Part shown: piece after piece, positions 5,289-55,346 of the stretch | Position numbering within the stretch: position 1 is the first letter of the stretch | Layout of the letters: each line of letters starts with the position of its first letter | Origin: a virus | Lineage: Duplodnaviria; Heunggongvirae; Uroviricota; Caudoviricetes | Virus record (IMG/VR): IMGVR_UViG_3300037400_004417 | Length of the DNA stretch: 64,000 nt | Reading direction: 5' to 3' (one strand) | The notes under the pieces: generated by a model | What the model saw: only the letters and a program-made list of their open reading frames with translations | Told to the model about the DNA's origin: nothing | The model's database searches: none | Program-made: the position numbers and the translations under genes

Positions 5289-5824
5289 GCCTTGTAATCT
5301 GTAGTTCCCATTATAATATTAGCTATACATTGTAAACCAATACAAAGTTCTAAGGGTATATCAATAAAATAAATAGCTAATGCGGCGCCAAAGAATTGCC
5401 CACCTAAATTCCAAGCGGATTCAAACGACTCCCATTTAGTTAGGTTATCCCCTTTTATAATATTGTTAACAGCATTACGCATTAATACATACCAAAGATT
5501 TGTACTGACCGCATTAAGTACAGCTAAACCTAGAAACCTTACAGTAATATACTCCGTAGATAAGAATGAGACAATACAAAAGCATAATAAATCTATAATA
5601 ACTATGCTATAGAAATGTTTTTTGTACCATCTCATAATCCTGTCTACAGCAACTGAGCTATTAACTAAAGCAGCTAATCCCGTAGAAAGCATATTGGCGG
5701 CGGCAAATATTTCAGTAGATACTCTGGACACAAAATATATCTGAATGATAGGACTCGTTAAAGCAAAGATAAATGATACTAAAACAGGACCTGACAATAG
5801 ATAGAACTTTAGTTTATTGCTCAT
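5249..5824 (-). CDS. multi-pass membrane protein
   Basis: 191 aa, several hydrophobic helices. Confidence 0.45.
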   Translation of the reverse strand: MSNKLKFYLLSGPVLVSFIFALTSPIIQIYFVSRVSTEIFAAANMLSTGLAALVNSSVAVDRIMRWYKKHFYSIVIIDLLCFCIVSFLSTEYITVRFLGLAVLNAVSTNLWYVLMRNAVNNIIKGDNLTKWESFESAWNLGGQFFGAALAIYFIDIPLELCIGLQCIANIIMGTTDYKAWNMIWKGKDTKI

Positions 5825-8118
5825 ATAATTTTTTCTGCCGGTAACAATCTATCTTCATAATACATCTTTTCTATATCTTTAATAGTAAGATTACGGAGAT
5901 AATCAGCGCCGAATTTATCCTTCAAGTCCCTTATGATATTATAAACTCTTACATCCTGTTCAGTAGCAAAGTTCTTTCTGACAGTCTTATTCTTAGAAAT
6001 AGATTCTAATAAGCCTCTCTTATATTTCCAGTACTTATAGAAAGGAGTCTTATATTTGAACATAAATCCATTAGAGTCTTCAAAGACATATCCTTCATAA
6101 AAAGGTTCATTGTTGTTTTCATGAAAACTTATAAAAGACTGCAAGTTATCCCAAGAAAAGAAAAGAGCTTTCGGCTTTTTAACTTCTATTTTAAAATCTT
6201 CAGCTATTTTCTTAACTTCTTCATAAGGTTTCTTATTAAACTCAAAGGTATTCTCTATAATATCTAAAAGATATAGATGATCTTTTTCATACCATATAGG
6301 GTGAGAGCTGTCTCTACTATCTACAACTTCAAAGACCATAGTTATGTTATTCTCTTTCAGATAGGTCTCAATTGCTTCTCTTGCATCTGCTGGTAACTTA
6401 CTGAACTGATACTTGAGCATGTCAGAGTATTCACCAGACAACAATGTCTTAGAACAGAACAATAACTTATCTTGTTCTCTGTCATAAGAGATAAGACCTA
6501 AGAAACCGTTCTCTTTCTTGTAGGCTGTCACAGGAAATACTAAAGTATTTTTTAAGGCTTCATCTGTAGTATTCTCTGTTTCAAGCCTGTTAAAAAATTT
6601 AGAATATCCTCTCGCTGCGATATCTCCTGTACTATTATAAACAAATAAGCCTCGAGCAGTACAGGTAAGGTTATTCCATTCTCTGCGCTTAAAAGCGCCC
6701 TTCGTAAAATTGTAAGAAGTTATATGCCCCTGAACAGTCTTTTTAATCAGCTTTGACTTCTCTAGCTGATCAATAATCTCAGTTTTATTATTATCAGAAA
6801 CTGTCACGTTTTCATTAGCAAATACTATAGGAATAATTCTTTCGTTGGGTATAGTATTCTTAATACGATGAACAGTTATCTCAGAAACTTCTAGATTTTC
6901 TTTTTTCTTGATCTGAAGAATTCTTAAATCGCCGCCGGTTTCTACCTTATCACAGAGATTATAAATCTTATTCTTAACTACTTCAGTCTCAACATCATAT
7001 ACATTACGATGAGCATGAATAAAGATACAGTCTGTATCAGACTCTAGAACTTCGTATAGCTTATCAGTATCTTCATACTTACCGACACCGTTAATAAGCT
7101 GATAAGTAGGAGTAAACCAGTCTGGAGGAGTAGGATAGCCACCATGACAGATAAAATAATCTTCTCCGGCAAAATAAAAATAAGCCATCTGAGCGAACTT
7201 GCGGCAGAACTGTCTTAAATCCTTCTTAGAAATATCCTTAATCTGAGGCATTGTATATTCCAAGAACTCCGCAGACCTAATCTTCTGGTGCAGTAAATTC
7301 TTAAGTTCCTTTTTGCTTAAAGTATTTCTCTGTTCATCAGTGACAGGAATTTCGGCGCCGTTGTCATCAGCATACATCCTTAACCATTTTTCATGATTGC
7401 CTTCTAAGAATAATACATTCTTATTCTGAGACAAGTTCATTAAGAATTCCAATGTCTCCTTATTCTGTAAGCCTCTATCTAAATAGTCTCCGGTAAATAC
7501 ATAACCGATCTCATTGTCAAAAGGATGTTCGTCAAACCATTTTTTTAAAGGTTCATAACAACCATGAATATCTCCGAATACCTGTACTTCCTTATAGTTA
7601 GAGTAATCATAGAACGGTTCTTCGTTACAGATAAAATTGCTAGCTTCATCGGGAGTCAAAGTATGAAATCTCTTAGATACTTCTTTATCTGCTTCGAATA
7701 CGGCATACATTTTACGGATAACTGCTTCAGGAACGAATTTGTAAGCATCTCTTTTCTTGTTTCTTTCTAAAGCAGTTTCCAAAGGAACCTGAGTAAAGTC
7801 AACGATAAAGTTTCTGTAGCGGTACTTAGATACTAAGTTTTTGTATCTATTAAGAAGTTCACTCTTATAATGGGTAGCGTCAATGATAATAAGCTCGCCG
7901 CGTTCCATTCTCTGTTCTAGCAGCTCCATTAATAGATCCCATACTTTTCCATCATTATTCTGGGAAATAGTATAATTGCCGTCAATATTCATAATAGGAC
8001 ACTGATACAGCAATCTGATATTGTCAGCAGATAAAGTATATCTTTCTAAATCGTTATCCTTAATCCAAGTAGATTTTCCGGCACCCGGAGCACCTCTTAA
8101 TAAAAATAACATTCGCAT
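5821..8118 (-). CDS. Pnkp-like polynucleotide kinase / metallophosphoesterase / ligase-like end-healing enzyme
   Basis: 765 aa; N-terminal P-loop kinase GAPGAGKST; central calcineurin-type phosphoesterase motifs GDIHG, GDYLDRG, GNHE; roughly 300-aa C-terminal domain in the position of the ligase/adenylyltransferase domain of bacterial Pnkp. Confidence 0.55.
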   Translation of the reverse strand: MRMLFLLRGAPGAGKSTWIKDNDLERYTLSADNIRLLYQCPIMNIDGNYTISQNNDGKVWDLLMELLEQRMERGELIIIDATHYKSELLNRYKNLVSKYRYRNFIVDFTQVPLETALERNKKRDAYKFVPEAVIRKMYAVFEADKEVSKRFHTLTPDEASNFICNEEPFYDYSNYKEVQVFGDIHGCYEPLKKWFDEHPFDNEIGYVFTGDYLDRGLQNKETLEFLMNLSQNKNVLFLEGNHEKWLRMYADDNGAEIPVTDEQRNTLSKKELKNLLHQKIRSAEFLEYTMPQIKDISKKDLRQFCRKFAQMAYFYFAGEDYFICHGGYPTPPDWFTPTYQLINGVGKYEDTDKLYEVLESDTDCIFIHAHRNVYDVETEVVKNKIYNLCDKVETGGDLRILQIKKKENLEVSEITVHRIKNTIPNERIIPIVFANENVTVSDNNKTEIIDQLEKSKLIKKTVQGHITSYNFTKGAFKRREWNNLTCTARGLFVYNSTGDIAARGYSKFFNRLETENTTDEALKNTLVFPVTAYKKENGFLGLISYDREQDKLLFCSKTLLSGEYSDMLKYQFSKLPADAREAIETYLKENNITMVFEVVDSRDSSHPIWYEKDHLYLLDIIENTFEFNKKPYEEVKKIAEDFKIEVKKPKALFFSWDNLQSFISFHENNNEPFYEGYVFEDSNGFMFKYKTPFYKYWKYKRGLLESISKNKTVRKNFATEQDVRVYNIIRDLKDKFGADYLRNLTIKDIEKMYYEDRLLPAEKII

Positions 8119-13858: not shown

Positions 13859-14092
13859 GCACTTTTATTAATAACTTGAATTTCTTCAAGGATCGGACTA
13901 TATCTTTATGCTATTAATAGCATATCTTCCATTTGGATATATAAATCTACGAGCGTAATAGCTCTAGTCTCTGAACCGAGTATTCTTTAAGAATACGATG
14001 GCTGCTGATTGTCGGCGTCGTCAAATTCTTTTATTGACAACACTACGATTTCCAGCAATTAGGAAGATTTTACATGAGCTGTAGAAAAGTTA
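13859..14092 (-). ncRNA. group I intron, nrdD intron 3 (family A, ORF-less)
   Basis: S-like cggactatatcttt (13905) and gctgctgattgtc (13998) on plus strand; exon 3 ends GGT (U), intron ends G; joins ...FAAAMG to CRTRV. Confidence 0.6.
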
Positions 14093-14378
14093 ACCCATGG
14101 CTGCTGCAAAGGTACGATAATCTCCTTCTTTATAGTAAGGAGCATTAAATGATGAAGACGTATTAAGAAAATTAGGGAATAAACGCTTCGCACTTACTTT
14201 GCAAGCATACTGGAATAAATCATAATTAGGATCTCCTTTTTCAAGATTTATTCCTTTATGGATTTGGAATACAGATATTGGGAAAATTGCAGGCTCTCCT
14301 TTTCCCAATCCATTCCATACTGCTTCTAATAAATACTTAGATACTAATCTACCTTCCGGAGAAGTATCCATTCCGAAA
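14093..14378 (-). CDS. nrdD: NrdD exon 3
   Basis: continues the NrdD reading frame; stop at 14090 lies just inside the intron. Confidence 0.6.
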
Positions 14379-15850
14379 TTAATAGAGCTAAATGGTCAGT
14401 AAGTTATTATCTCATGGTTTTTTATCCATGACTCTGGAAGTTTCCTTCATTTGAAGTTATCTCATTAACTAGTCAATTCTAGTTCAGCTTGGCGTACATT
14501 TTCATCCTATTATTAAATAGGAGTAAGACACTCTTGGTTATATTTTATTCTATAAAATAGTTTCAATAACTACGCTCTACGATGATATTGTTTTTTACGC
14601 AATATTTATCTCGGTATTGACATATCTGCTATTATATTCTTGTATAGCGGCCATAGCCTTTTCGTATTTTCTAAATAAATAAGTTGTAGAATCTGTATAT
14701 AAATAATTTATTAATGCAATAACATCTTTCTTAGATGACCATTTAACGGAGAATATTCCTTTTTCATAACTTGGTTTATTAAATGCGATGTTTAATTTGT
14801 TTGATAAATAATTTCTAATATCGTATATAATATTATCATGTCCACAAAATACAATGTGCCATGAAGGATTACGGTTAGTTAAAATTCGTCTATAAATACT
14901 TCCATCTCCATCGAAATATCCTCTTATAAAATGTTTATACATTTCTTCTTTTAATGTAGGAAAAAAACGATTAGGTTTATAATTAACCATTCCATGTCTT
15001 TCTAAATGTTCTACAAATTCATTATTTGTTACACTAATAGAAGATTCATTTTTTCTTTTGTCTATGACAATTTTTCTAGGTGCTTTTATTAAATCCTTTA
15101 TTTTCTTTATCATATAACTATCAGATTCTTGCAATTCAATTGTGAAAAGTTTACTATTATTTTTATATTTATTTATGAAAATACATCCATCGGCAATAAA
15201 TAACCCTAATAAATAAGCTTTTTCTTCACTATCTATTTTTTCAAAAAAGTTAGTTATTAAACTTCCTCTATTTAAATCTTGTCGATTATAAATGGAAATA
15301 TTATTTCTTTCTAAAACTTTTTTTGCCGTTAATTCACATATATGAAATTGTTTTGATAAGGCCTTTATTGACATAGGTTTTGTTAAATAAAAATTTATTA
15401 TCTTATTGTCGTCCAATATTTTTTTATTCATAATTATTTCACCTCCTTTTATCTAAAATAGCAGATTTAGTTTTTACCGACATTGTCTTATTTAAAAAAT
15501 ACATTACTGTATTCTCAGGCTACCATGTTAACCTGCGAACCGGCTCTACTATGACCTAACTACCCTCGGTTTCCCGATATTTATTAGGGGAGTAGACTAT
15601 CTTTTCATTTCTTGTGAAATGTCTCATCTTTTGAATAATAATATTATTCTACTTCCATATTGGAATAGTCGTTACACTTTGCTTTATTATCAAAAAACAA
15701 AGCACGGTATTTGCAGCTATCCTTTTTTATTAAAAGGACCTTAGCGTCTCTTACGGAGCTGATTCGAGCACAATGCCTTATTTAACTCCTACCGTTAGCC
15801 TTAATTATTTATTAAGACACCCTATATTTATAGGTTAATGAGATTTTCCG
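14379..15850 (-). mobile_element. group I intron, nrdD intron 2 (family D), carrying a LAGLIDADG HEG
   Basis: core 15690-15840 is near-identical to the core of the UvrD-helicase intron at 26790-26940; boundaries approximate. Confidence 0.55.
14595..15431 (-). CDS. double-motif LAGLIDADG homing endonuclease with N-terminal HTH
   Basis: YLLGLFIADGCIF and IRGYFDGDGSIY motifs; 278 aa. Confidence 0.8.
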   Translation of the reverse strand: MNKKILDDNKIINFYLTKPMSIKALSKQFHICELTAKKVLERNNISIYNRQDLNRGSLITNFFEKIDSEEKAYLLGLFIADGCIFINKYKNNSKLFTIELQESDSYMIKKIKDLIKAPRKIVIDKRKNESSISVTNNEFVEHLERHGMVNYKPNRFFPTLKEEMYKHFIRGYFDGDGSIYRRILTNRNPSWHIVFCGHDNIIYDIRNYLSNKLNIAFNKPSYEKGIFSVKWSSKKDVIALINYLYTDSTTYLFRKYEKAMAAIQEYNSRYVNTEINIA

Positions 15851-21373: not shown

Positions 21374-21816
21374 CATTAATGTTATTTAATTTCATTTATT
21401 TTATAAAAAAATAAAATTAAATTTCCTATATTTAGGACTCTGATTTTCATCAGAAGTTCAGACTATATCTTCATCCTTATAAAAAAGGAGTCGAGCATTT
21501 CGATTTAAAGGACTTTCACCTACCTGATACCAGGCCCTACTCCTATTGGCATTTCAGCCCACAATGGGATAGTCGTTGAACCTTCTCCTTACTCCACAAG
21601 TGAAGGAGCTTGGCTGCTGATCGTCGATTTTTATTTGAATTTTAGGACTATATTTTTTTATAGCTTTTATTTCACCATGATTCATTTTATTGTTTCTTTC
21701 AGTCTTTCGACAACATTCGCACTTATTATTTCTAATTATGCTGTAGTACAATAAACTTTACGATGTCCCAGCAATTAACTCGATTTTTTCCTACACATTA
21801 CTGTATAGGGAGACCC
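21374..21816 (-). ncRNA. group I intron (family A, ORF-less) in the SNF2 helicase gene
   Basis: S cagactatatctt (21460), R gatagtcgttgaacc (21573), gctgctgat (21612) on plus strand; proposed junction DEIN|IQYIKSD with exon end U and intron end G. Confidence 0.55.
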
Positions 21817-22553
21817 ATATTAATCTCATCCGCTCCAATAAAATCTAATTTCATTTTATGTAATTTAGCTCTTACTTTATCATCATTAAGAGTTTCATAA
21901 TTACATATCATTAAATCTACATTTTCGAATTGTTTATTGAATGCTTCTTCATTTCTGCATTTAGAATAAGTATCTAATATCTTAGAACGATAATCTGTAA
22001 ATTTTGATACTTCTGCATTCCATTGAGCTTTTAAAGATGCTTTAACAACTATTAATCCAGGAGGGGTTATCTTTCCTAAATTAACGGAATCAGAGAATAT
22101 ACCTAGTAAGCAGGCTGTTTTGCCAGCTCCACAACCTGCGACGATAAGACATTTTTCATTATCTGTCGCGAATTTGATTATATCCTGTTGATATTTATAA
22201 GGTTTAAGTTTTAAACTTAATCCTGCAGATTCAGAATCAATTATTTTTTGGCTAGATCCAAAAATCTTATTGACTCTATTGTTATGAGCAGTAATTCTTT
22301 TTTCTGTTCTATCCTTTTTAGCAGGAAATACTTCGTCGTTTAATTTGATTAGCTTATTTAATGCATATTCAGATATAAGCCAATCTCCTGATTCTATGTC
22401 CATACAAGATTCAGATTTTCTATCTCCAATGATATACATAAATTTATCGAAGTATTTCATAGCTTTAGATGAACTAGAAATATTTACAGCGAATTTATTA
22501 TCTTTATTCTGAAGTTTACGATAATAAAACAATTCTTTCTTGATGACCTTCAT
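21817..22553 (-). CDS. SNF2-family helicase, exon 1 (Walker A and DExx)
   Basis: AGCGAGKTA Walker A, GADEIN motif II. Confidence 0.65.
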
Positions 22554-24611: not shown

Positions 24612-25760
24612 TTAAGTTTTTACTACGTATTGGGAATTTATCTCCTTGATAAATCGTGAAGGTTTGTTAGGGAACACGCCTCTTTTAGTAAGTACAGTGG
24701 TTGGATAGGTTATAAAAAGATACTTTTCGGCTCTCGTCATTCCGACATAGAATAACCTTCTTTCCTCTGAAATATCTCCAGCCTGTATTGCTTTTATATG
24801 AGGAACAACTTCTTCATTTGCTCCAACTATAATTACAGCTGGAAATTCCAAACCTTTAGATGCATGCATAGTCATTAGATTAACATAATCATCTTCATCT
24901 TGTTCTTCTGTCATCTGGGTATTCATTATAACATTATTAGAAAAGTCAGCTAAATCTACATAATTACATGCTACTTCTCTTAACTCTACTAAATTAGCTA
25001 ACTTTTCAGGAACTAATTCTTCTTCTGCTGTTTCACTAATATAGTCCTCATAATGAACCATATTAATGATCTCTTTAACTATGTCTTCAGGACTATTTGC
25101 TAAGCAATATTCGGTTAAAGTTTCAATTACAGCGATAAATCTGTTCAAATTTTCTCTTGTTGTCTTTGTTACCTTCACATTTTTACAAGCGGATAATAAT
25201 CCCCCGTTGTCTATTGTACCATGTTCATCAGCATATGTAAAGACCTTTTCTAAAGTTTTATCTCCAATTCCTCTCTTTGGAACGTTGATAATACGTCTTA
25301 ATGCTTCTGAATCATTAGGGTTTAATAGAAATCTGACATATGCCATAATATCTTTGATTTCTTGTCTCGCATAGAAAGCTAAACCGCCGGTGATTTTATA
25401 AGGAATTCTATTCTTTAACATAGCCTTTTCTATACGCCTAGACAAAAATTGCATTCTGTAAAGTATCGCCATATCTTTATATGCCATACCTTTTTTCTTT
25501 AAAGCTTTAACAATACGTACTACATGGTTTGCTTCATCAGTACTATTAGTCAACGCAGATAACATAATGCTGTTTCCTACTTCATTTTCAGTAAAAACAG
25601 TTTTCTTAATAGGTTCGTCATTGTTCTTAATCATACTGCGAGAAGCATTTACGATAGTTTTTGTGGATCTATAATTTTGTTCTAACATAAATTGTTTAAA
25701 ATTATATGTCTTCATAAAATCATATACGGATCCCATATTTGCGCCTCTGAAACTATATAT
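24612..25760 (-). CDS. UvrD/PcrA-like helicase, exon 3 (motifs IV-VI)
   Basis: IYSFRGA...LEQNYRSTKTI...VGMTRA; in-frame extension upstream of the Met to 25760. Confidence 0.75.
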   Translation of the reverse strand: MYSFRGANMGSVYDFMKTYNFKQFMLEQNYRSTKTIVNASRSMIKNNDEPIKKTVFTENEVGNSIMLSALTNSTDEANHVVRIVKALKKKGMAYKDMAILYRMQFLSRRIEKAMLKNRIPYKITGGLAFYARQEIKDIMAYVRFLLNPNDSEALRRIINVPKRGIGDKTLEKVFTYADEHGTIDNGGLLSACKNVKVTKTTRENLNRFIAVIETLTEYCLANSPEDIVKEIINMVHYEDYISETAEEELVPEKLANLVELREVACNYVDLADFSNNVIMNTQMTEEQDEDDYVNLMTMHASKGLEFPAVIIVGANEEVVPHIKAIQAGDISEERRLFYVGMTRAEKYLFITYPTTVLTKRGVFPNKPSRFIKEINSQYVVKT

Positions 25761-27645: not shown

Positions 27646-27977
27646 CCAATTGTTATTAACCTACGGCTTTTTATCCGTAGCTCTGGAGGTTATCCTCATT
27701 TTCATCGGTTAGTCTTTTCTAACCCAGTGTAGCGTACCTTTTGCATATAGCTTCTATATTTAATATAGAAGTAAAACTGTAAATATGGACCGGCCTCTTG
27801 GGAACATTATATCTTTTCAGTTCCTACGCGTTGCTCCTCATCTTACTTTGCAAGATGTTCGGTTCTGATTAGGTTTATAACCCTTCCAGCTTAATTCCGG
27901 CCTAATAATTCAGAAACTTCATACAGTCTTTGTTTCTGAACGGCAATATTTAATGTAATTCATTACATTACACAATT
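27646..27977 (-). ncRNA. group I intron (family B, ORF-less) inside the Walker A codons of the UvrD-like helicase
   Basis: exon 1 ends GPGSG (GGT) and exon 2 starts AAA ACT (KT); intron ends G at 27646; family-B core motifs at 27670-27700, 27775-27830, 27860-27900. Confidence 0.65.
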
Positions 27978-29432: not shown

Positions 29433-29724
29433 CTAGATATTTTTATCCTATAGTTTTTTATCTATAGCTCTGGAGGTCGCCCTCATTTTCATCGGATGAT
29501 CAATACATCCCAGCATAGCATATCTTTTTATGTAGTTCTATATTGATTATAGAAATAGTACTGTAAACATAGAACGGTCTCTTGGTGAGATTATATCTTT
29601 TCACTCACTATGCGTTGCCCCTGACTTATCTTAAATAAGCCTTCGGTTCTGATTAGGTTTATAACCCTCCCAGCTTAATACCATTCTAATCATCGAGATT
29701 CTTCATACAGTCATTGAATCTCGA
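29433..29724 (-). ncRNA. group I intron (family B, ORF-less) in the AAA ATPase gene
   Basis: family-B motifs tctatagctctggaggtcgccctcattttcatcgg (29460), ggtctcttggtgagattatatcttttca (29575), cttcggttctgattaggtttataaccc (29640); boundaries approximate. Confidence 0.55.
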
Positions 29725-30808
29725 CGGCAAAAAATTCACCATTAATTGCTTTCTCTATCTCATCTACTAACAAGACACATGGAGCACATTTTCTTACGAT
29801 ATTTAAAGCTTGTTCTATTTTCTGTTCTGATTCTCCGACTAACTTAGACATAATCTTTGCAGGATTAAAAGATATAAACGGCATATTCATCATACCTGCA
29901 AATGCTTCTGCAATAGCTGTCTTAGCACATCCAGCTACACCCGTAAATACTGCACCTTTTGGGGCGGGTATATTAAACTCTCTAGCTTCTTCGCTAAAGA
30001 ATTCTTTTTCTTCGTATAACCATTTCTTAATGGCTCTATTCCCGCCAATGTCTTCCAAGGTCGTTTCAGGAATCTTATAATCTAATAAGCCACTCTTCTT
30101 GATAATTTGAATCTTGCTGTTAAGAAGGTGTTTAGGAGATATAGTATTTTCTTTAGTGAAAGATTCAGCAAGCGCCATACTAGCCTCTCGATAAGTGATA
30201 CCGCTAAGGGCTTTAACAGCTTCATCAATAATTTCTTCAGTAACGGATACATAATTGTTATTTCCTTTTTCTATATAGTATTTTAGCTTATCGTTGACCG
30301 CGCAAACTAATTTTCTAATATCTTCTTCTTCTGGATAGCCATAATCTACTACTCTAAAGAATCTGGAAATAGATTCTGGTATGTTTACGGTACCTGACGT
30401 ACAAATTACGATATTTGTTCCTTCACATCTATTTCCTTCATTTATTTCCTTGAAATATGAAGGAATCTTATCCATAGTCAAAAAATCATTAAAGTCTTTT
30501 AGTATAAATATATTGTTTGATGGCTCCTGATTACCTCGAAGTCCAATAATATCACTAATATGTTCTAAGATTGCCATAGGTTCTCTTAGTTTTAAATTAG
30601 GAGCTTCTTTATTGGATTCATCAAAGAAAGTTTCTACTCTTAATAATCCTCCTGAATTGCTCCAAGAATATAAATTAAATTCGCGACATTTATCAGAAAC
30701 CAACTCTGTCATGTCTTCAATAAATTCTTTTGATTCGAAAGTCGTTACCCAAATACAAGGCAAGCCTATATTTATTAAATTTTCAATTTCATTTAAACTT
30801 TGTCTCAT
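29725..30808 (-). CDS. classical AAA ATPase, exon 1 (N-domain, Walker A/B)
   Basis: GVAGCAKTAIAEA Walker A, LLVDEIEKA Walker B. Confidence 0.65.
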
Positions 30809-41106: not shown

Positions 41107-42237
41107 CATTTTGTTAATCGTTAAGTTTTTTATCTTAACTCTATATCTTGCGATACAGATCAGCATATATTTTTACGTATTTTTATCATTACTTCAAACG
41201 TAATCCGGTCTCTTGGTAGAATTATATCTTTTCATCTACTATGCGTTGCCCCTGAATATACTTAGTATATCCTTCGGTTCGCGTTTTCCTTGTTCAGGAT
41301 TTTCACGTTTAATACCAGATTAATAATCTAATTTCTTCATGAAGTTTTTGAAACTAGACGGCAAAAATTTAAATATCTATTGTATTTTCTGTCTAAATAA
41401 ATAGTAGCATCAGAATACATAAAATTTAATGCTTTTAAGATTTCTTGTTTTGCTGATATTCTGTATATGTATACATTTTTTCTAAATTTTACTTTGTAAG
41501 TAGTTTTTACACCAGCTAAACGTTCAAAGATATCTTTTATGTATTCCAATATATCTTTCCCCATGCCAAAACCTATTTCTCTATAATTATAGCCATAAGT
41601 TATCCATCCATCTCCATCAAAAATACCCCTTATATAATGATGAATAAGGTGTTCTGGAATTTGTTTTGCTGGCCTTTCGTTTAAAGTTTTAACACTGGAA
41701 AATCCTAAATTTATCAGGGCTTGATGTAAATGTTTATTAGTAATAGTTAATGTACTAACTAAAGCGGTATCACTATATCCACCACTTTTTCTGATTTCAA
41801 TCGGATGTTCAGATTCAATCGATTTTTTAAACTTTTCAACATGATTATGATCTGAATGCATAAGACTTAATCTAATTCCATTGCTCGATTTAAAAATACA
41901 ACCATCTGCGGTTAATAAACCAAGCCAATATGCTTTTTCTTCAGTGTCTATTACATCAAAGTAATTTTCATTTACATCATATATTCCCCGGATTTCATAT
42001 CTATTGTATTCTTTTAAATATTTGGCTAAAGTATCTCTTGATACTCCTAAATCTTTAGCACATTGGGTAATGCTTAGATCTTTATGTTGAGAAAAGTAAT
42101 TTACTGCATCTTCCCAAAATTTTTCGAGCATTTTTTGTTTGTTTAACATTTAAGAACACTTCTTTCTGTGGAAATAGTATACTTAAATTATTACCAAACA
42201 GCTTTAATGCTTTATACATAGATGTTTAAATTTGTTT
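41107..42237 (-). mobile_element. group I intron, gyrA intron 2 (family B-like core), carrying a LAGLIDADG HEG
   Basis: micro-exon ends ...QGNHG (GGT, U) at 42238; intron ends G at 41107; family-B motifs ccggtctcttggtagaattatatcttttca (41205) and ccttcggttcgcg (41270). Confidence 0.6.
41337..42149 (-). CDS. double-motif LAGLIDADG homing endonuclease with N-terminal HTH
   Basis: YWLGLLTADGCIF and YIRGIFDGDGWI. Confidence 0.8.
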   Translation of the reverse strand: MLNKQKMLEKFWEDAVNYFSQHKDLSITQCAKDLGVSRDTLAKYLKEYNRYEIRGIYDVNENYFDVIDTEEKAYWLGLLTADGCIFKSSNGIRLSLMHSDHNHVEKFKKSIESEHPIEIRKSGGYSDTALVSTLTITNKHLHQALINLGFSSVKTLNERPAKQIPEHLIHHYIRGIFDGDGWITYGYNYREIGFGMGKDILEYIKDIFERLAGVKTTYKVKFRKNVYIYRISAKQEILKALNFMYSDATIYLDRKYNRYLNFCRLVSKTS

Positions 42238-42333: not shown

Positions 42334-42635
42334 CAATTATATTACAAATATAATCTGACTATATCATCATCTTTGTTTTATACCAAAGAGCTAGGCGCTT
42401 CATGACAAGGAAATTCACCTTATTCATTACACTCTTATTTGAGTTAGTCGATTGACCTACTATTATATATAATAGATTGGCACAGGATAAAGCTAATTCA
42501 ACTGTCCCCTGTTAGCACTATCATTATATGTCATTTCCTACATACACAATTAATCGTTGATAGCACACCTTACATAATTATAAGTTCACCTAGTTTTCAT
42601 TATGATTCTCATCATAATGCCACCCGATTTCACAA
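42334..42635 (-). ncRNA. group I intron, gyrA intron 1 (family C, ORF-less)
   Basis: exon 1 ends ...GRYH (CAT, U) at 42636; intron ends G at 42334; S ctgactatatca (42357), R tagtcgattgac (42440); about 85% similar to nrdD intron 1. Confidence 0.65.
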
Positions 42636-44275: not shown

Positions 44276-45446
44276 CGATTATACCCTTGCTTTTGCAATA
44301 TTTAAAAATTCATCATATATTTCTTTTTTTCTATCTAAATAAATGGTTGCATCTAAATACATAATGTTTAAAATTTTATATAATTGAATATTTCCTCCAA
44401 TATGTAATTCAAATGCATTATTATGAGGTACGATTTTTAAATTGTTTTTATTGAAATAACTAGATATACCTTTTAACATATCTTTAGTTCCAGTAAAACC
44501 CAAACAATATTTTTTTTGGTTATTGTAATTGTAATATGATAAAGATCCATCACCATCAAAATATCCTCGAATAAAATGATGTATTAAATCTTTCGGAACA
44601 ATATTGTCTGTTGGAAAATTTAATAAATATGTTTTGTGTTCGGCAACACCTTTATCTTTTAAATCATTTACAGTTTTGCTACTTGTTAACAGTATTTTTG
44701 CGAACATATTTTCTTTTGCAAATCCACTACCTTTATATATTTTAATAGGATTTGTAGCTTCAATATCTTTTTTAAATTTATATAAATGATTTATCTCTGA
44801 ATGTTTTAAAGTTATACCTATTTTTTGATTTGAATTTTCTCTTTTTGATTCAATAAAACCATCAGCATATAAAAATCCTAACCAATAAGCTTTATGCTCT
44901 GTATTTATTGTTTCAAAAAAAGATTCATTATGAAAATATTTTCTAGAATTTATAGAATTATTTCTAATTGTGATATTATGTTCTTTTAAAATATTCGATA
45001 GAGTTTTTCTATCATGATTGTATTTCTTTTCTAAAGAACGTAAAGATATGTTATTTTCATAATCAACAATTAAATTTTGCAATTCATTTATTGATAGATT
45101 TAATTTTTTTGCCATAAATACCATTCCTTTGTTATATATTTATATATTTATTACTACAAAGTAAATGATATTTATACAAATGGCGTAAATATATTTAATG
45201 TATAGGGTCTAGATCATATCTTCACCATATTTTTATATTGTCATAAAAACTTAGGTTGCTCCACTTCCTTCTTAAAATATATTATTTAGAAGTAAGTCCG
45301 AATGGACTGATCGTTGAACCTTCTTTATTTATTATAAAGATTGGCTGCGAATTGTCCATTTAATTTAAATAATAAAAAATGGATATCCTCGCAATTCAGA
45401 GCTCTTTAAATTATATCTTTCGATATAATACGACTGTTAAAATTCA
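44276..45446 (-). mobile_element. group I intron, gyrB intron 2 (family A), with a LAGLIDADG HEG whose stop lies 3 nt from the 3-prime splice site
   Basis: exon 2 ends ...MNDAD (GAT, U) at 45447; intron ends G at 44276; S ctagatcatatcttca (45215), R gactgatcgttgaacc (45307), ggctgcgaattgtcc (45343). Confidence 0.7.
44279..45124 (-). CDS. double-motif LAGLIDADG homing endonuclease with N-terminal HTH
   Basis: YWLGFLYADGFI and FIRGYFDGDGSLS. Confidence 0.8.
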   Translation of the reverse strand: MVFMAKKLNLSINELQNLIVDYENNISLRSLEKKYNHDRKTLSNILKEHNITIRNNSINSRKYFHNESFFETINTEHKAYWLGFLYADGFIESKRENSNQKIGITLKHSEINHLYKFKKDIEATNPIKIYKGSGFAKENMFAKILLTSSKTVNDLKDKGVAEHKTYLLNFPTDNIVPKDLIHHFIRGYFDGDGSLSYYNYNNQKKYCLGFTGTKDMLKGISSYFNKNNLKIVPHNNAFELHIGGNIQLYKILNIMYLDATIYLDRKKEIYDEFLNIAKARV

Positions 45447-46646
45447 ATCTGCATCGTTCATTAATATTATCTTATGATATCTTAATTTATCTAAATTAAA
45501 TTCTTCGCCTATCCCACACTTTAAAGCCTTTACTAAATCCATAATTTTTGGGCTTTTTAAAATTTTATCTAAGGTAGTTTTAGTAGAGTTTAAACCTTTA
45601 CCAAAAAATGGCAAGATTGCTTGAGTTCTTCTATCTCTTCCACCTTTAGCACTACCTCCTGCAGAATCGCCCTCTACTATAAATAGCATACATTCTTCGG
45701 GATTTTTAGAGCTACAGTCTGCTAATCCTTCTACGTGTCCACTATCTATAGCTTTAACACCTCTAGCGGTATCACGTGCTTTTCTAGCTGCTTCTCTAGC
45801 TTTTGCAGCCTTTAAAACTTTTTCAATAATTAAAGTACTTCTATTTTTATCTTGAGATAAGAAATCATATATATATTCTTCTATAGCCTCTTTTACGGAA
45901 GAATATATGTTTTTCATTCTAAGACGGCCTTTTCCCTGTCCTTCAAAAACAGGGTCCTTTAATTTAACAGAGACTATAGCTGTTAAACCTTCCTGACAAT
46001 CATCACTCGTGATTTGGCTAGCTTCTTTGATATGATTATATTCTAAAGCATATTTTCTAATTGCGTTAAATAATCCTGCTTTAAACCCTGTCTCATGATC
46101 GCCACCATAAATAGTGATTACATCATTAACGAAAGATTTAATATTAGGAGAAAATGTTTCAATATAAGACATAGCTATATCTATATCGACATTTCTCTCT
46201 ATATTCTCATTATTAAACTTTATAGTATACTGAGACGTCTTAGAGAAACTAATAGGTTCCAGTATCGGTGTTTTATTTGCGATAGATTCTTTTACATATC
46301 CAATTAATCCCTCCGGATAACAATAAGATTCATCTATCTTTACCGGCTTATTATCCTTATCTACAGAATCTACATAATAATTTAAAGTTAACCCTGGATT
46401 TAAATAGGCTAATCTTTTTATATGTTTATTTAATTCGATAAAATCGAACCATTCATCTTGCCATATATCTGAATCAGGGATAAAATGTATTTCTGTTCCC
46501 GTTACATCTTTCTCTATCTGTTCTCCTGTTTCATATAAAGGCTTCGTTAATAATCCTTTAGAATATTCAATAGCATATTCTTTTCCATTAGTTCTAACTA
46601 CTGCTTTAAAGAAATCAGATGTAGCATTTACACAACTTATACCTAC
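45447..46646 (-). CDS. gyrB: DNA gyrase subunit B, exon 2 (transducer and Toprim)
   Basis: VGISCVNATS..., EGDSAGGSAKGGRDRRTQAILP, KLRYHKIILMNDAD. Confidence 0.8.
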
Positions 46647-46902
46647 CATTTATGTTCGATTAAGGTCGCTAATCTTAATCCGTTCTCCTACGAACTGCTT
46701 TATGTTTCCATAAAGATCAGACTATATCTTTTTCGATTTTTCTTGAAAGTTTCTGTTTCCATTCGCTTGAATGTACGGCTTATTGCCTAGTCGTTGAACT
46801 CTATTATATAATATCAGCTGCTGATTGTCCTTATATTATAATATAAGGGGATTCCAGCATTTAAGAAACTTTTACAACGGCATATTTTTTTTATGCGGTT
46901 TT
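46647..46902 (-). ncRNA. group I intron, gyrB intron 1 (family A, ORF-less)
   Basis: exon 1 ends ...SGLNG (GGT, U) at 46903; intron ends G at 46647; exon 2 starts VGISCVNA, restoring GLNGVGISCVNA; S cagactatatcttt (46715), R gcctagtcgttgaac (46790), gctgctgattgtcc (46817). Confidence 0.7.
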
Positions 46903-47238
46903 ACCGTTTAAACCTGAAGTATTTGTTGTGTATCCATCTTGTGATGAAAACTTGCCACCTGCATGTAAAGAGCCTATTGCAAGCTCAATTTGACGTTTAT
47001 CTTCATATCCTGGAGTTTTAGAATATCCAATAGGGATACCGCCGCCATTATCTTCTACGATAACTTCTTTATCTATGATAGCGGTGGTTATGATAGAACA
47101 TCTCCCGGCGCTCGCTTCATCTCTAGAATTATCTAAAGCCTCATTAATACAATGATCAATAGAAGGGAGATACATTCCTCTTCTCATTCTAACATTGTCT
47201 GGAAAATCTAATACGCTTATTTGTGCTTGTTCCGCCAT
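46903..47238 (-). CDS. gyrB: DNA gyrase subunit B, exon 1 (GHKL ATPase N-terminus)
   Basis: VRMRRGMYLPS...EALDNSRDEA...VEDNGGGIP...LHAGGKF. Confidence 0.8.
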
Positions 47239-49068: not shown

Positions 49069-49874
49069 TTATCCAACAGCTAATTCGTCAAAGTTATCTT
49101 TAACGATTATTTCATTAGTGTTTGGATCTACATCTACTATAATCTCTTTACTGCCTTTAAAATCTGGCATTTTATACATCGTATCCATTAAGATATTTTC
49201 AACGATACCTCTAAGAGATCTTGCTCCTGTCTTCATCTCAATGGCTTTATTGGCAATTTTTCTTAAAGCTTCATCAGTAAAAGTTAAAGTAGCAGCATTA
49301 GCTCTAAAAATATTCTTATACTGCTTTACCAATGAGTTCTTTGGTTCAGTTAAAATCTTAGTTAAAGCTTCTTCAGATAGAGTTTGTAAGGAACATATTA
49401 CAGGGAATCTACCTAATAACTCCGGCAACATACCATATTTACGTAGGTCTTCGGCTTTAATATCCAAAATTAAATCGTTAAAAGCCTTTTCTTCGTCTAA
49501 CTGTATTGTCGTACCAAAACCCAAGGTAGAACCAGATGTTTTCTTCTGTCTCTTAGCGATAATCTTCTCAATACCTTCAAATGCTCCGCCTACAATAAAT
49601 AATACATTTTCAGTATTGAACTTAAAGGTTTCTGCATTCGGATGATGTCTTTGTCCTTTTGCGGCTACTTCTACTACTGTTCCCTCTACGAACTTCAATA
49701 ATCCCTGCTGTAAATCTTCATGACTAGGATCTGCAGAAGTAGAAGCGCTCTCTCCTTTTCTAGAACACTTATCTATTTCGTCAATGTAAACAATACCACG
49801 TTCTGCCTTAGAAATGTCTCCATTAGCAGCATTCACTAGGTCTTTTAAAATTGACTCGAGGTCTCGACCTACAA
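49069..49874 (-). CDS. clpX: ClpX ATP-dependent protease ATPase subunit, exon 2
   Basis: VGRDLESILKDLVNAANGDISKAERGIVYIDEIDK...GLLKFVEGT...; listed start is GTG within the exon. Confidence 0.8.
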
Positions 49875-50262
49875 CTAATTATTTTTATCTTGCGATTTTT
49901 TATTCGCAACTCTGGAGATTGCTCTCATTTTCATCGATTAGTTATTTCCAATCCAGTATAGCATACCTTTTTATATAGTCTTTAATAAAATCATTAAAGA
50001 TTCAACTACAAATATAAAGCGGCCTCTTGGGAGTATTATATCTTTTCAACTCCTATGCGTTGCCCCTGGTTAAACGAATTATTATTTTACGTTTATCATT
50101 AATTTCCGGCATTATCCTTTATATAATTTAGCTACTTAAATTTGTAGCACCTTCGGTTCTGATTAGGTTGTATTTAACCCTTCCAGCTTAATTCCGCTTT
50201 TATAATCTATGGCTTTCTTGTAGTCTTTAACCATAGACGGCTATTTGTTTTTCAAATAAATA
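49875..50262 (-). ncRNA. group I intron (family B, ORF-less) in clpX
   Basis: exon 1 ends ...SSTG + TT (U) at 50263; intron ends G at 49875; the join restores TGFVGRD (ClpX AGYVGED); family-B motifs at 49895, 50010, 50150. Confidence 0.7.
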
Positions 50263-50755
50263 ACCCAGTCGAACTAAAACTCGTTATGTCCTCTATTACG
50301 AATGGTAAACCCAATGCTTGTGCTAATCTTTTTATTAATAAAGTTTTACCAGAGCCAGTTGAACCAACCATTAAGATATTGCTCTTTTCAATATCGTCGC
50401 TTCCTTCGATACCCATTTTCTTCATTCTTAATCTTAAGAAATGGTTATATATAGCGACAGCAATTGTCTTCTTTGCATTTTCCTGTCCGATTACGTAATT
50501 ATCAAGATATTCTTTTAACCCTGCAGGAGTTTGCTTTATCTCGTTAGTGCCTGCTGAAATGGTTTCATTCTCCTTCTTTGTTTCTTCTACGACTGCGATA
50601 TGTTTAAAACCAGAATATACATTTGTCGCACAATTAAAACATAAGCAGTTTCCAGTTAACCCTTGTACTAAAAAATTAGAGGTATTTTCTTCTGCGGAAA
50701 TAGGTTTACCGCAAAACAAACATTTAGTATCGTTTGTAATAATATTTTTATTCAT
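50263..50755 (-). CDS. clpX: ClpX, exon 1 (zinc-binding N-domain, Walker A)
   Basis: CLFCGKP...CFNC zinc finger; LKEYLDNYVIGQENAKKTIAVAIYNHF; ILMVGSTGSGKTLL. Confidence 0.8.
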
Positions 50756-50809: not shown

Positions 50810-51442
50810 TCAATTTGTCCCGTCGTGTCTAGTAACGATTTTGTCAATTAAGCCATATTCTAATGCCTCCTCTGCTGTCATATAACAATCTCGATCCATA
50901 TCTTCTAAAAGATCTTCATATTTCTGTCCTGTATGTTTTACATATAACTTAGTCAGGACTTCCTTTGTATGTTTCATGTGTTCCCAGACAATTTCCATAT
51001 CCGAAGCCATACCCTGAGAACCACCACTAGGCTGATGAATCATGATATTAGAATGAGGTAATGCCATTCTCTTACCTTTAGTTCCACCCATTAAAAGCAA
51101 AGAACCCATAGATGCCGCCAAACCTACACATACAGTTCTTACATCGCAAGTAATATATTGCATTGTATCGTAAATACCTAAACCAGTATCTACTTGGCCG
51201 CCAGGACTATCAATATACATAGTAATATCTGCTTTTGGATCTTCATGTTCCAATAAAATTAACTGAGCCTTAATAGCATTAGCCAAATTAGGTTCAATTG
51301 GTCCAGTTACATAAATAATTCTTTCTTGCAAGAGTCTTGAATAAATATCCATCGCTCTTTCGGATCTACCATCTCTCTGGATTACCATAGGCGCATAGTA
51401 ATCATTAATAATAGTATTGTTGTGCATAGTTAAAATCTCCAA
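50810..51442 (-). CDS. clpP: ClpP protease proteolytic subunit
   Basis: IDSPGGQV, GLAASMGS (catalytic Ser), MIHQP (catalytic His). Confidence 0.85.
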   Translation of the reverse strand: MEILTMHNNTIINDYYAPMVIQRDGRSERAMDIYSRLLQERIIYVTGPIEPNLANAIKAQLILLEHEDPKADITMYIDSPGGQVDTGLGIYDTMQYITCDVRTVCVGLAASMGSLLLMGGTKGKRMALPHSNIMIHQPSGGSQGMASDMEIVWEHMKHTKEVLTKLYVKHTGQKYEDLLEDMDRDCYMTAEEALEYGLIDKIVTRHDGTN

Positions 51443-55120: not shown

Positions 55121-55346
55121 CAGTCCACTTCCCTTATACTATCTTTGTCAGCTTCCGCTACGATAAATTTGTAAAAATATTACTACTTCTATAAATTTAT
55201 ACTTTAATACTTCTCACGAAGTATTTTCCTCGTTCATCGAATCCGATTTCGCCGAAGCTATTCTCGTTTGATATAATTCTCCGGAGGCTTAAATTCCCTA
55301 GTAGCGATAGGTACACGTTTAAGTGTTCTTCGAAAATTGAACGTTC

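Follow-up and report, generated by a model that had tools for sequence, protein, structure and literature searches.

Positions 50262 to 49875 on the minus strand of the DNA analysed here, a 64,000-nucleotide Caudoviricetes stretch from IMG/VR record IMGVR_UViG_3300037400_004417 (the window), are very probably occupied by a group I intron of the IA2-like "family B" type, which has no endonuclease and splits the aromatic pore-1-loop codon of clpX between its first and second bases. The insert interrupts the gene exactly and its helices are intact. It belongs to a widespread family with covarying helices and shared splice-site rules, both of its exons are under purifying selection, and other phages reuse its site. 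Coordinates are collected in Table 1.

The earlier note had placed an intron of 388 nt in clpX at 49875-50262. This interruption is confirmed, and its coordinates exactly fit the group I rule, by which U precedes the 5′ splice site and the intron ends in G. The wording given for the exon ends ("G+TT" and "(T)") is one base off from those same coordinates; the resulting mRNA is identical, because base 1 of the intron and base 1 of exon 2 are both T. Exon 1 codes for residues 1–164 of the fused ClpX and supplies base 1 of its codon 165. Reading on from it leads to an in-frame TGA three codons into the insert, where no ORF is present and all three frames are full of stops. On the far side, ClpX-like codons (VGRDLESILKDLV) extend in frame upstream of GTG 49836, the earliest possible start of the C-terminal ORF, and reach 49874.

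Joining 50263 to 49874 gives a fused ORF of 432 aa, which scores 428.4 bits against TIGR00382 (cut-off 370.75) and 458.5 bits against the ClpX equivalog NCBIfam NF003745 (cut-off 359). An alignment of the reconstructed ClpX, which the earlier note had proposed as a check, bears out the join: against Neisseria meningitidis ClpX (6vfs) it covers GSTGSGKT and GFVG and is gapless at the junction (ditsfsstgFvgrdlesil versus datTLTEAGYVGEDVEQII). Opposite ..sstgFvgrdlesil.., solved ClpX structures read ..TEAGYVGEDVEQII.., again with no gap at this point. The insertion point falls after base 1 of the aromatic codon (T/TT, the slash marking the insertion point; G-F-V-G). In established ClpX biochemistry, the G-Y/F-V-G motif is the pore-1 loop. 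The aromatic residue of this loop grips substrates.

In every contig, gene calling yields one ORF of 167 aa and one of 255 aa here, as it would if clpX were truly split, with N-terminal (167-aa) and C-terminal products that assemble and 388 nt of unspliced spacer between them. We regard such an arrangement as highly improbable. The C-terminal start at GTG 49836 lies 13 conserved codons past the junction, and these codons are in frame and under purifying selection; the break is inside the pore-1-loop codon; along its full length, the spacer matches a structured-RNA family whose helices covary; and in a sister phage, L002, the break comes 8 nt further on with the coding sequence still collinear.

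Table 1 Features of the clpX locus, of its intron and of the further introns in the window (a slash in a coding sequence or protein motif marks an insertion point or junction; elsewhere it separates paired strands)
Feature	Position	Strand	Details
clpP	50810..51442	-	directly upstream of clpX, co-oriented; PF00574, 259.9 bits
clpX exon 1	50263..50755	-	Zn-finger N-domain and Walker A; ends ..AGT TCG ACT GGG T
Insert	50262..49875	-	388 nt; first letters UAUUUAUUUGA, last ..AAUAAUUAG
clpX exon 2	49069..49874	-	first codons TT GTA GGT CGA GAC; F-V-G-R of the pore-1 loop
N-terminal ClpX ORF	50252..50755	-	167 aa; stop three codons past ..FSSTG
C-terminal ClpX ORF	49836..49069	-	about 255 aa; earliest possible start GTG 49836
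clpX codons at the site, spliced-cDNA form			TTT GTA GGT CGA
Predicted spliced DNA junction			..ACTGGGT/TTGTAGGTCGAG..; as a longer form AGTTCGACTGGGT/TTGTAGGTCGAGACC
Intron-less clpX target sequence			..ACTGGGTTCGTGGGTAGGGACCTC..
P1	50239..50265	-	exon GGU and intron UAUUU (50265..50258) with internal guide AAAUAGCC (50246..50239); 8/8 pairs
P2 hairpin	50205..50238	-	10 bp, 14-nt loop; 10/10 pairs
P3, 5′ strand AAAGCGG	50194..50200	-	with 50022..50016 CCGCUUU; 7/7 pairs
P4 (CUGG/UCAG) around P5 (GGGUU/AACCU)	50159..50186	-	J3/4 AAUUAAG just upstream
P6 (CC/GG) and extended P6a-c arm	50065..50156	-	78-nt peripheral insertion, placed inside P6a by model R1
P7, 5′ strand GCAUA	50054..50058	-	after J6/7 GGCAAC; partner 49965..49961 UAUGC
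P7.1 hairpin (GGAGU/ACUCC)	50030..50053	-	conserved loop UGAAAAGAUAUAAU
P3, 3′ strand CCGCUUU	50016..50022	-	closes the P3/P7 pseudoknot
P8	49975..50009	-	4-bp outer and 8-bp inner stem; 12/12 pairs
J8/7 AUAAAAAGG and P7 3′ strand UAUGC	49961..49974	-	
P9 three-way junction and P9.2	49890..49956	-	P9 CUG/CAG, P9a, P9b with GNRA loop GCAA
Terminal G (omega-G), 3′ splice site	49875	-	
Family-B intron, UvrD-like helicase	27646-27977	-	332 nt; Walker A GPGSG/KT; R1 109 bits; no RF00028 call
Family-B intron, AAA ATPase	29433-29737	-	305 nt; R1 119 bits; no RF00028 call
Family-B intron, gyrA	41107-42237	-	1131 nt; before N-L-D-G-D-P-P-A-A-M-R-Y; R1 107 bits; no RF00028 call
Probable gyrA intron	~42334-42635	-	~302 nt after ..GRYH; contains GAUGAUAUAGUCAGA, ends in G
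RF00028 group I introns	13874-14148, 46698-46920	-	at gathering score
RF00028 match	21438-21832	-	74.9 bits; missed in the gathering run, seen with laxer filters
RF00028 match	45199-45456	-	38 bits, sub-threshold; laxer filters

The helices of the insert follow the order of a group I core, with a P3/P7 pseudoknot, P4-P5-P6, P8 between P3′ and P7′, and P9 after P7′, and all 18 of the listed helices are fully paired in the clpX copy. At the 5′ splice site, U50263 and G50241 form a wobble pair within P1. P7 starts at G205-C302 beside the unpaired C204 and U303, a candidate guanosine-binding site by its G-C pair next to unpaired bases and arranged as in phage Twort (CAAC-G../..C-U-GAAC), and in the J8/7 region the family consensus AAAAGAUAUGC is similar to the RF00028/Twort motif AAGAUAUAGUC. 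The 10-bp P2 hairpin is kept in the other family-B introns of the window with a different sequence, and multi-hairpin P6 arms like that of the clpX intron occur at five further loci (L039, L066, L060, L114 and L002). For P10, only a weak ACAA/UUGU pairing is possible and none is claimed. The clpX copy encodes no homing endonuclease, as there is no ORF in the 388 nt. The reading of the insert as a group I intron, proposed in the earlier note, stands on P1 with its U.G pair, the guide, the P3/P7 pseudoknot, P4-P6, P8, P9, the terminal G and family membership.

An outer P7 made of CAG and CUG around "GGGCAAC" was considered and dropped after comparison with Twort and with variants that have a short P9. 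The CAG by "GGGCAAC" is part of the P6/P6a internal loop, and the partner of the CUG is a CAG in the P9 three-way junction, in a helix that is invariant. As a separate observation, the L2 loop (UUAAAGACUACAAGAAA, 50214-50230) nearly repeats the 3′ strand of P8 plus J8/7 (UUAAAGACUAUAUAAAA, 49969-49985), and L2 of the other family-B introns in the window carries a similar conserved sequence, AAAGACUGUAUGAA.

The Rfam group I model RF00028 does not see this family. It returned nothing on the insert (searched over 49600-50500) even at E ≤ 10 with lax filters, nothing at E ≤ 10 on a canonical family-B member, and no match at the motif in 18 family-B loci at the gathering score. This is a gap in the coverage of one model, not a failed structural criterion. 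Since RF00028 is silent, the evidence for a group I intron comes from a purpose-built model together with covariation and the logic of the splice sites. The missing curated Rfam match is also the one point, with nothing more specific beside it, that could be cited for some other kind of insertion, be it an IS or MITE, a group II intron, an intein or a translational bypass element. To judge from the sequence, all of these are effectively refuted: a scan of the insert boundaries found neither terminal inverted repeats nor a target-site duplication, the insert falls short of the length of a group II intron, for which Rfam gave no match either, stops in all frames exclude an intein, and 388 nt is far above the known bypass gaps, with a group I-type P1, guide and terminal G present.

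Reading the insert by eye yielded P1, P2, P3 and the motifs GAACCGAAGG and CAGGGGCAACGC, which recur at two further places in the window. The 16-mer CAGGGGCAACGCATAG is found in at least 120 IMG/VR stretches and its GCGTAG variant in at least 120 more, giving a total of at least 240 stretches with the family-B core (loci L011-L252). The flanks of the 16-mer sites have one conserved architecture, with helices that visibly compensate. The "family B core" that the earlier note recognised in the insert is thereby real; besides these stretches it is present in three further introns of the window and in the gyrA introns of phage AR9. A BLAST search with one family-B member gave matches in records of crAss-like, large Clostridioides difficile and Staphylococcus phages, in each case at places that bear no annotation.

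We built a covariance model, R1, from 37 IMG/VR sequences, none of them the window, spanning P3-P4-P5-P6-P6a-P7.1-P3′ (119 positions, 28 pairs). R1 matches the clpX insert from 50202 to 50015 over model positions 1–119, with 92.7 bits and E = 6e-25. A match of this significance to a window-free model, together with an identical split gene in five independent gut-metagenome contigs, puts the insert well outside what chance would give. Over 88 kb searched on both strands, R1 gave only eight matches, all within split genes: the clpX insert, 29689..29570, 27905..27786, 41323..41201, two gyrA introns of AR9, the gyrA intron of phage vB_BpuM-BpSp (BpSp) and the clpX intron of L002.

The helices of the family covary. 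In the R1 seed, 95.1% of cells are paired and 18 of the 28 pairs show double changes; sliding the partners by 1–3 columns lowers pairing to 30–46%. For the 3′ domain, 17 "long P9" sequences, including AR9 and BpSp, are 99% paired, with double changes at 18/29 pairs (P7.1, P9a, P9b and P9.2). Between the two tests P3 (5/7 pairs), P4, P5, P6a, P7.1 (4/5 pairs), P9a, P9b and P9.2 covary. The P6 and P9 stems are invariant and so carry no covariation signal, and P8 was left out of the counts as its length is too variable for a MAFFT alignment. As P7 is fixed by the search motif, it was tested in a directed way: of 84 sequences with 5′ GCAUA, 83 have 3′ UAUGC, and all 70 with 5′ GCGUA have 3′ UACGC, a covariation that may reflect just two lineages or a few evolutionary events. 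The P4-P5 pattern of family B matches that of the RF00028 consensus AAUUGCGGGAAA..UAAUCCGCAGCC.

Splice sites were compared in five family-B introns with exon positions taken from protein alignments (clpX, the AAA ATPase, the UvrD-like helicase, gyrA and clpX of L002). In all five, the 5′ exon ends in GGU, with the U paired to G in a guide whose last letters are ..GCC. The intron side of P1 (3–8 bases) varies in sequence in all five with pairing kept, that is, it covaries. P2 is shorter in L002, whereas in the other four a P2 of 10 bp comes after P1. All family introns with a 3′ junction placed by protein alignment (8/8) end in G; in AR9 and BpSp this final G directly precedes conserved GyrA codons.

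Group I introns splice by guanosine attack at the U.G pair, followed by exon ligation at the terminal G. In the pathway that we propose for the clpX copy, clpP and clpX would be transcribed as a single RNA; on the minus strand from clpP to the end of clpX, no promoter- or terminator-like sites were found except one weak promoter-like match inside exon 1. The intron would then fold into P1 to P9.2, including the P3/P7 pseudoknot. A guanosine held in P7, the holder of the G site by analogy, would attack the phosphodiester 3′ of U50263, which the guide AAAUAGCC presents in a U.G wobble. Next, the terminal G 49875 would enter the G site, and the 3′-OH of exon 1 would be joined to exon 2. The predicted message, ..ACUGGGU-UUGUAGGUCGA.., would encode the 432-aa ClpX working with the adjacent ClpP. 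We infer from these sequence features that the clpX copy is catalytic and is spliced in vivo. It cannot home by itself, because it is without an endonuclease gene, and is either a homing relic or was moved by recombination.

The same phage lineage is represented in several contigs from gut metagenomes; metagenome contigs come from SRR12668996, SRR22213167, ERR15880646 and ERZ27250409. A megablast search of the clpX intron region against 50,697 phage records gave no match, and an exact look-up of the C-terminal ORF (P0001) returned no record; its cluster mates did yield contigs. In the five independent gut-metagenome contigs that share the split clpX, the 388-nt insert differs by 0–4 substitutions. 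The four natural substitutions are in loops or in the peripheral P6 arm, and one of them changes the P9b loop from GCAA to GUAA, retaining a GNRA loop. The closest uninterrupted ClpX proteins are only 55–59% identical; in one of them (L001) the codons ACT GGC TTC GTG GGG AGG run straight across the site.

The sister phage L002 carries an alternative intron. Its clpX is intact up to ..GGG TTC GTG GGT, where a 1463-nt family-B intron (1508-2970; R1 64.5 bits) precedes AGG GAC, 8 nt downstream of the window site. This intron holds a 399-aa LAGLIDADG ORF (26.2 bits, cut-off 22.5), which at 1617-2816 crosses the ribozyme core from P3 to the P7.1 loop, so that coding sequence and catalytic RNA overlap. 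By clusters of the N-terminal fragment, the 388-nt form is present on ~10 contigs and the LAGLIDADG form on ~5. The spliced coding sequences of the window and L002 are 1299 nt each and collinear, and differ at 35 positions with two amino-acid changes; both exons are under purifying selection. Four synonymous differences (at 495, 498, 502 and 504) flank both insertion sites. The 8 nt that separate the sites belong to exon 2 in the window but to exon 1 in L002, a switch of exon roles that is difficult to explain other than by precise removal of both inserts.

These comparisons also bear on whether the element is an intron by descent whose present copy is catalytically dead, or dependent on a maturase or host factor, with clpX a pseudogene or conditionally expressed. 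The copy has no ORF of its own, it has an extra arm of 78 nt in P6a, its helices are AT-rich, and its minimum free energy gives a z-score of only -2.7; the AT-rich helices and the P6a arm could make folding protein-dependent. Yet all core helices and junction motifs are intact, P6 arms of comparable size occur in other family members, the exons remain under the purifying selection described above, and the changes among the five other contigs, in which the intron is conserved, are confined to loops or the peripheral P6 arm. A dead or dependent copy is on this evidence improbable.

The pore-1 codon is a recurrent target. A tblastn search with the fused ClpX against loci that had been collected by the intron motif alone found about a dozen split phage clpX genes. 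Six of these loci (L137, L161, L121, L101, L087 and L068), with ClpX proteins 36–57% identical to that of the window, have a family-B intron at the same position, its final G directly before AT GTC, TC GTT or TT GTT, and the introns of L133 and L151 lie 1 nt upstream. A second site is the Walker A codon pair GGT/AAA (G-x-G/K-T), occupied by a family-B intron in L123, L062, L076, L133, L101 and L068; this is the same type of site as that of the helicase intron in the window. Some phage clpX genes with a Walker A intron (set L123, L062, L076, L133, L101, L068 and L121) also have a pore-1 intron, with a mini-exon of ~87 nt between the two. The earlier note had called introns in proteolysis genes unusual, which is overstated given about a dozen split phage clpX genes, with at least six lineages at or 1 nt from the codon. 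Within the literature library searched, no relevant paper on clpX together with group I introns was found.

The window itself is rich in introns, with about nine or ten of the RF00028 and family-B types in its 64 kb. The family-B intron in gyrA has a 270-aa LAGLIDADG ORF (41337-42149) in its P1 loop and occupies the site of AR9 intron 2. A second, probable gyrA intron (~42334-42635) was matched by neither RF00028 nor R1; its site is that of AR9 gyrA intron 1 and of the BpSp intron. The four RF00028-type introns have nrdD, an SNF2-type helicase gene and gyrB as hosts, and LAGLIDADG ORFs are found near introns of this type at 14595-15431 and 44279-45124.

Several other features of the window were recorded. 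An ORF on the minus strand at 88-1815 has methyl-accepting chemotaxis signalling and Cache domains (139.7 and 118.4 bits), so either this is an odd phage gene or this end of the window is not phage. The ORF at 5821-8118 (minus strand) encodes a 765-aa protein in which a kinase (AAA_33) is fused to a phosphoesterase and a T4-type RNA ligase 1 domain, and looks like an RNA-repair (Pnkp/ligase) gene. A RAGATH-18 RNA is present at 55226-55287 (minus strand; 66.4 bits, above gathering), and RF03531 ("C. difficile sRNA included into helicase gene") gives a sub-threshold match of 37 bits at 24700-24797 (minus strand), inside the UvrD_C ORF.

A group I intron at a conserved functional codon of a phage gene is an already known kind of element, and the clpX intron leaves current knowledge of the group I mechanism unchanged. 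Two side results are the escape of family B from Rfam and the recurrent targeting of clpX pore-loop and Walker A codons in uncultured phages. As the family escapes the Rfam group I model, gene calling breaks clpX of the window, like about a dozen further phage clpX genes, into two fragment ORFs, and a dedicated family-B model would mend many split phage genes. With the intron in the codon for the aromatic residue of the pore-1 loop, ClpX activity would depend wholly on accurate splicing, and divergent phages have introns at this site or its immediate neighbours. Near-identical genomes with two different introns 8 nt apart offer a natural system in which to study how introns turn over and how their endonucleases compete.

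The 8 nt between the two sites and the clustering of synonymous changes there prompt the speculation that the copy without an endonuclease gives protection from the LAGLIDADG intron next to it. A broader scheme, which we offer tentatively and consider rather unlikely to hold as a whole, is that family B is an uncurated IA-type subclass (single P7.1, GCAUA/UAUGC P7, invisible to RF00028) that spread in gut and jumbo phages via P-loop and pore-loop codons ending in GGU, with the 388-nt clpX copy persisting as an immunity allele by splitting the recognition site of the LAGLIDADG intron 8 nt downstream.

The nearest known relatives of the clpX intron are in gyrA of the Bacillus jumbo phage AR9/PBS1 and of BpSp, which belong to the same RNA family (R1 74 bits for each AR9 intron, 78 bits for BpSp). 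They have in common with it the P2 hairpin, a long three-way junction at P9 whose P9b bears a GNRA loop, P9.2 and the terminal G, and the 3′ domain of the AR9 intron is 86% identical over 78 nt. AR9 differs in phage and in host gene, gyrA instead of clpX, and the clpX copy has the larger P6 arm. According to a preprint (10.1101/2020.12.14.422802), which also refers to mature AR9 mRNAs determined by experiment, two introns disrupt AR9 gyrA. The AR9 gyrA coding sequence is annotated as a join of three pieces.

Proven ribozymes are represented by the orf142 introns of Staphylococcus phage Twort, which are of subgroup IA2 and whose I2 ribozyme has a crystal structure (PDB 1Y0Q). Twort orf142 and the clpX intron share one helix order, P1-P2-P3-P4-P5-P6-P6a-P7-P7.1-P3′-P8-P7′-P9-P9.x. 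Twort I2 and family B further have in common J3/4 AAUU, J4/5 AA, J5/4 AAU, J6/7 GCAAC, GAUAU-[P7 3′]-UGAAC, GAAG and a similar tail (GUAACAUAAUUG versus GAUAACAUAUUG). From this helix order, the junction motifs and the RF00028-like P4-P5 pattern, family B is classed as probably IA2-like. The differences are that P7 is GACUAU/AUAGUC in Twort and GCAUA/UAUGC in the clpX intron, that Twort has both P7.1 and P7.2 where family B shows a single hairpin and then CCA(C/A)GAG, and that the Twort introns score 64–101 bits on RF00028, which gives none for family B. Searched against phage Twort, R1 did not match the introns and gave only a 13-bit chance match; as there is no statistical match between the two, the link to proven ribozymes runs through architecture, motifs and the AR9 annotation.

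The classical phage group I introns are those of T4 td, nrdB and nrdD/sunY and of the DNA polymerase genes of SPO1, SP82 and Bastille. Such introns occupy conserved functional codons, optionally carry homing-endonuclease ORFs, and vary between close relatives in presence and in site; for the Bastille intron, a distance of about 21 nt from the SPO1 site is reported. The classical hosts are nucleotide- and DNA-metabolism genes, whereas clpX encodes a protease-associated unfoldase, and the family-B endonucleases found here are of the LAGLIDADG type. The pattern seen between the window and L002, with sites 8 nt apart, is like the classical site shift between SPO1 and Bastille.
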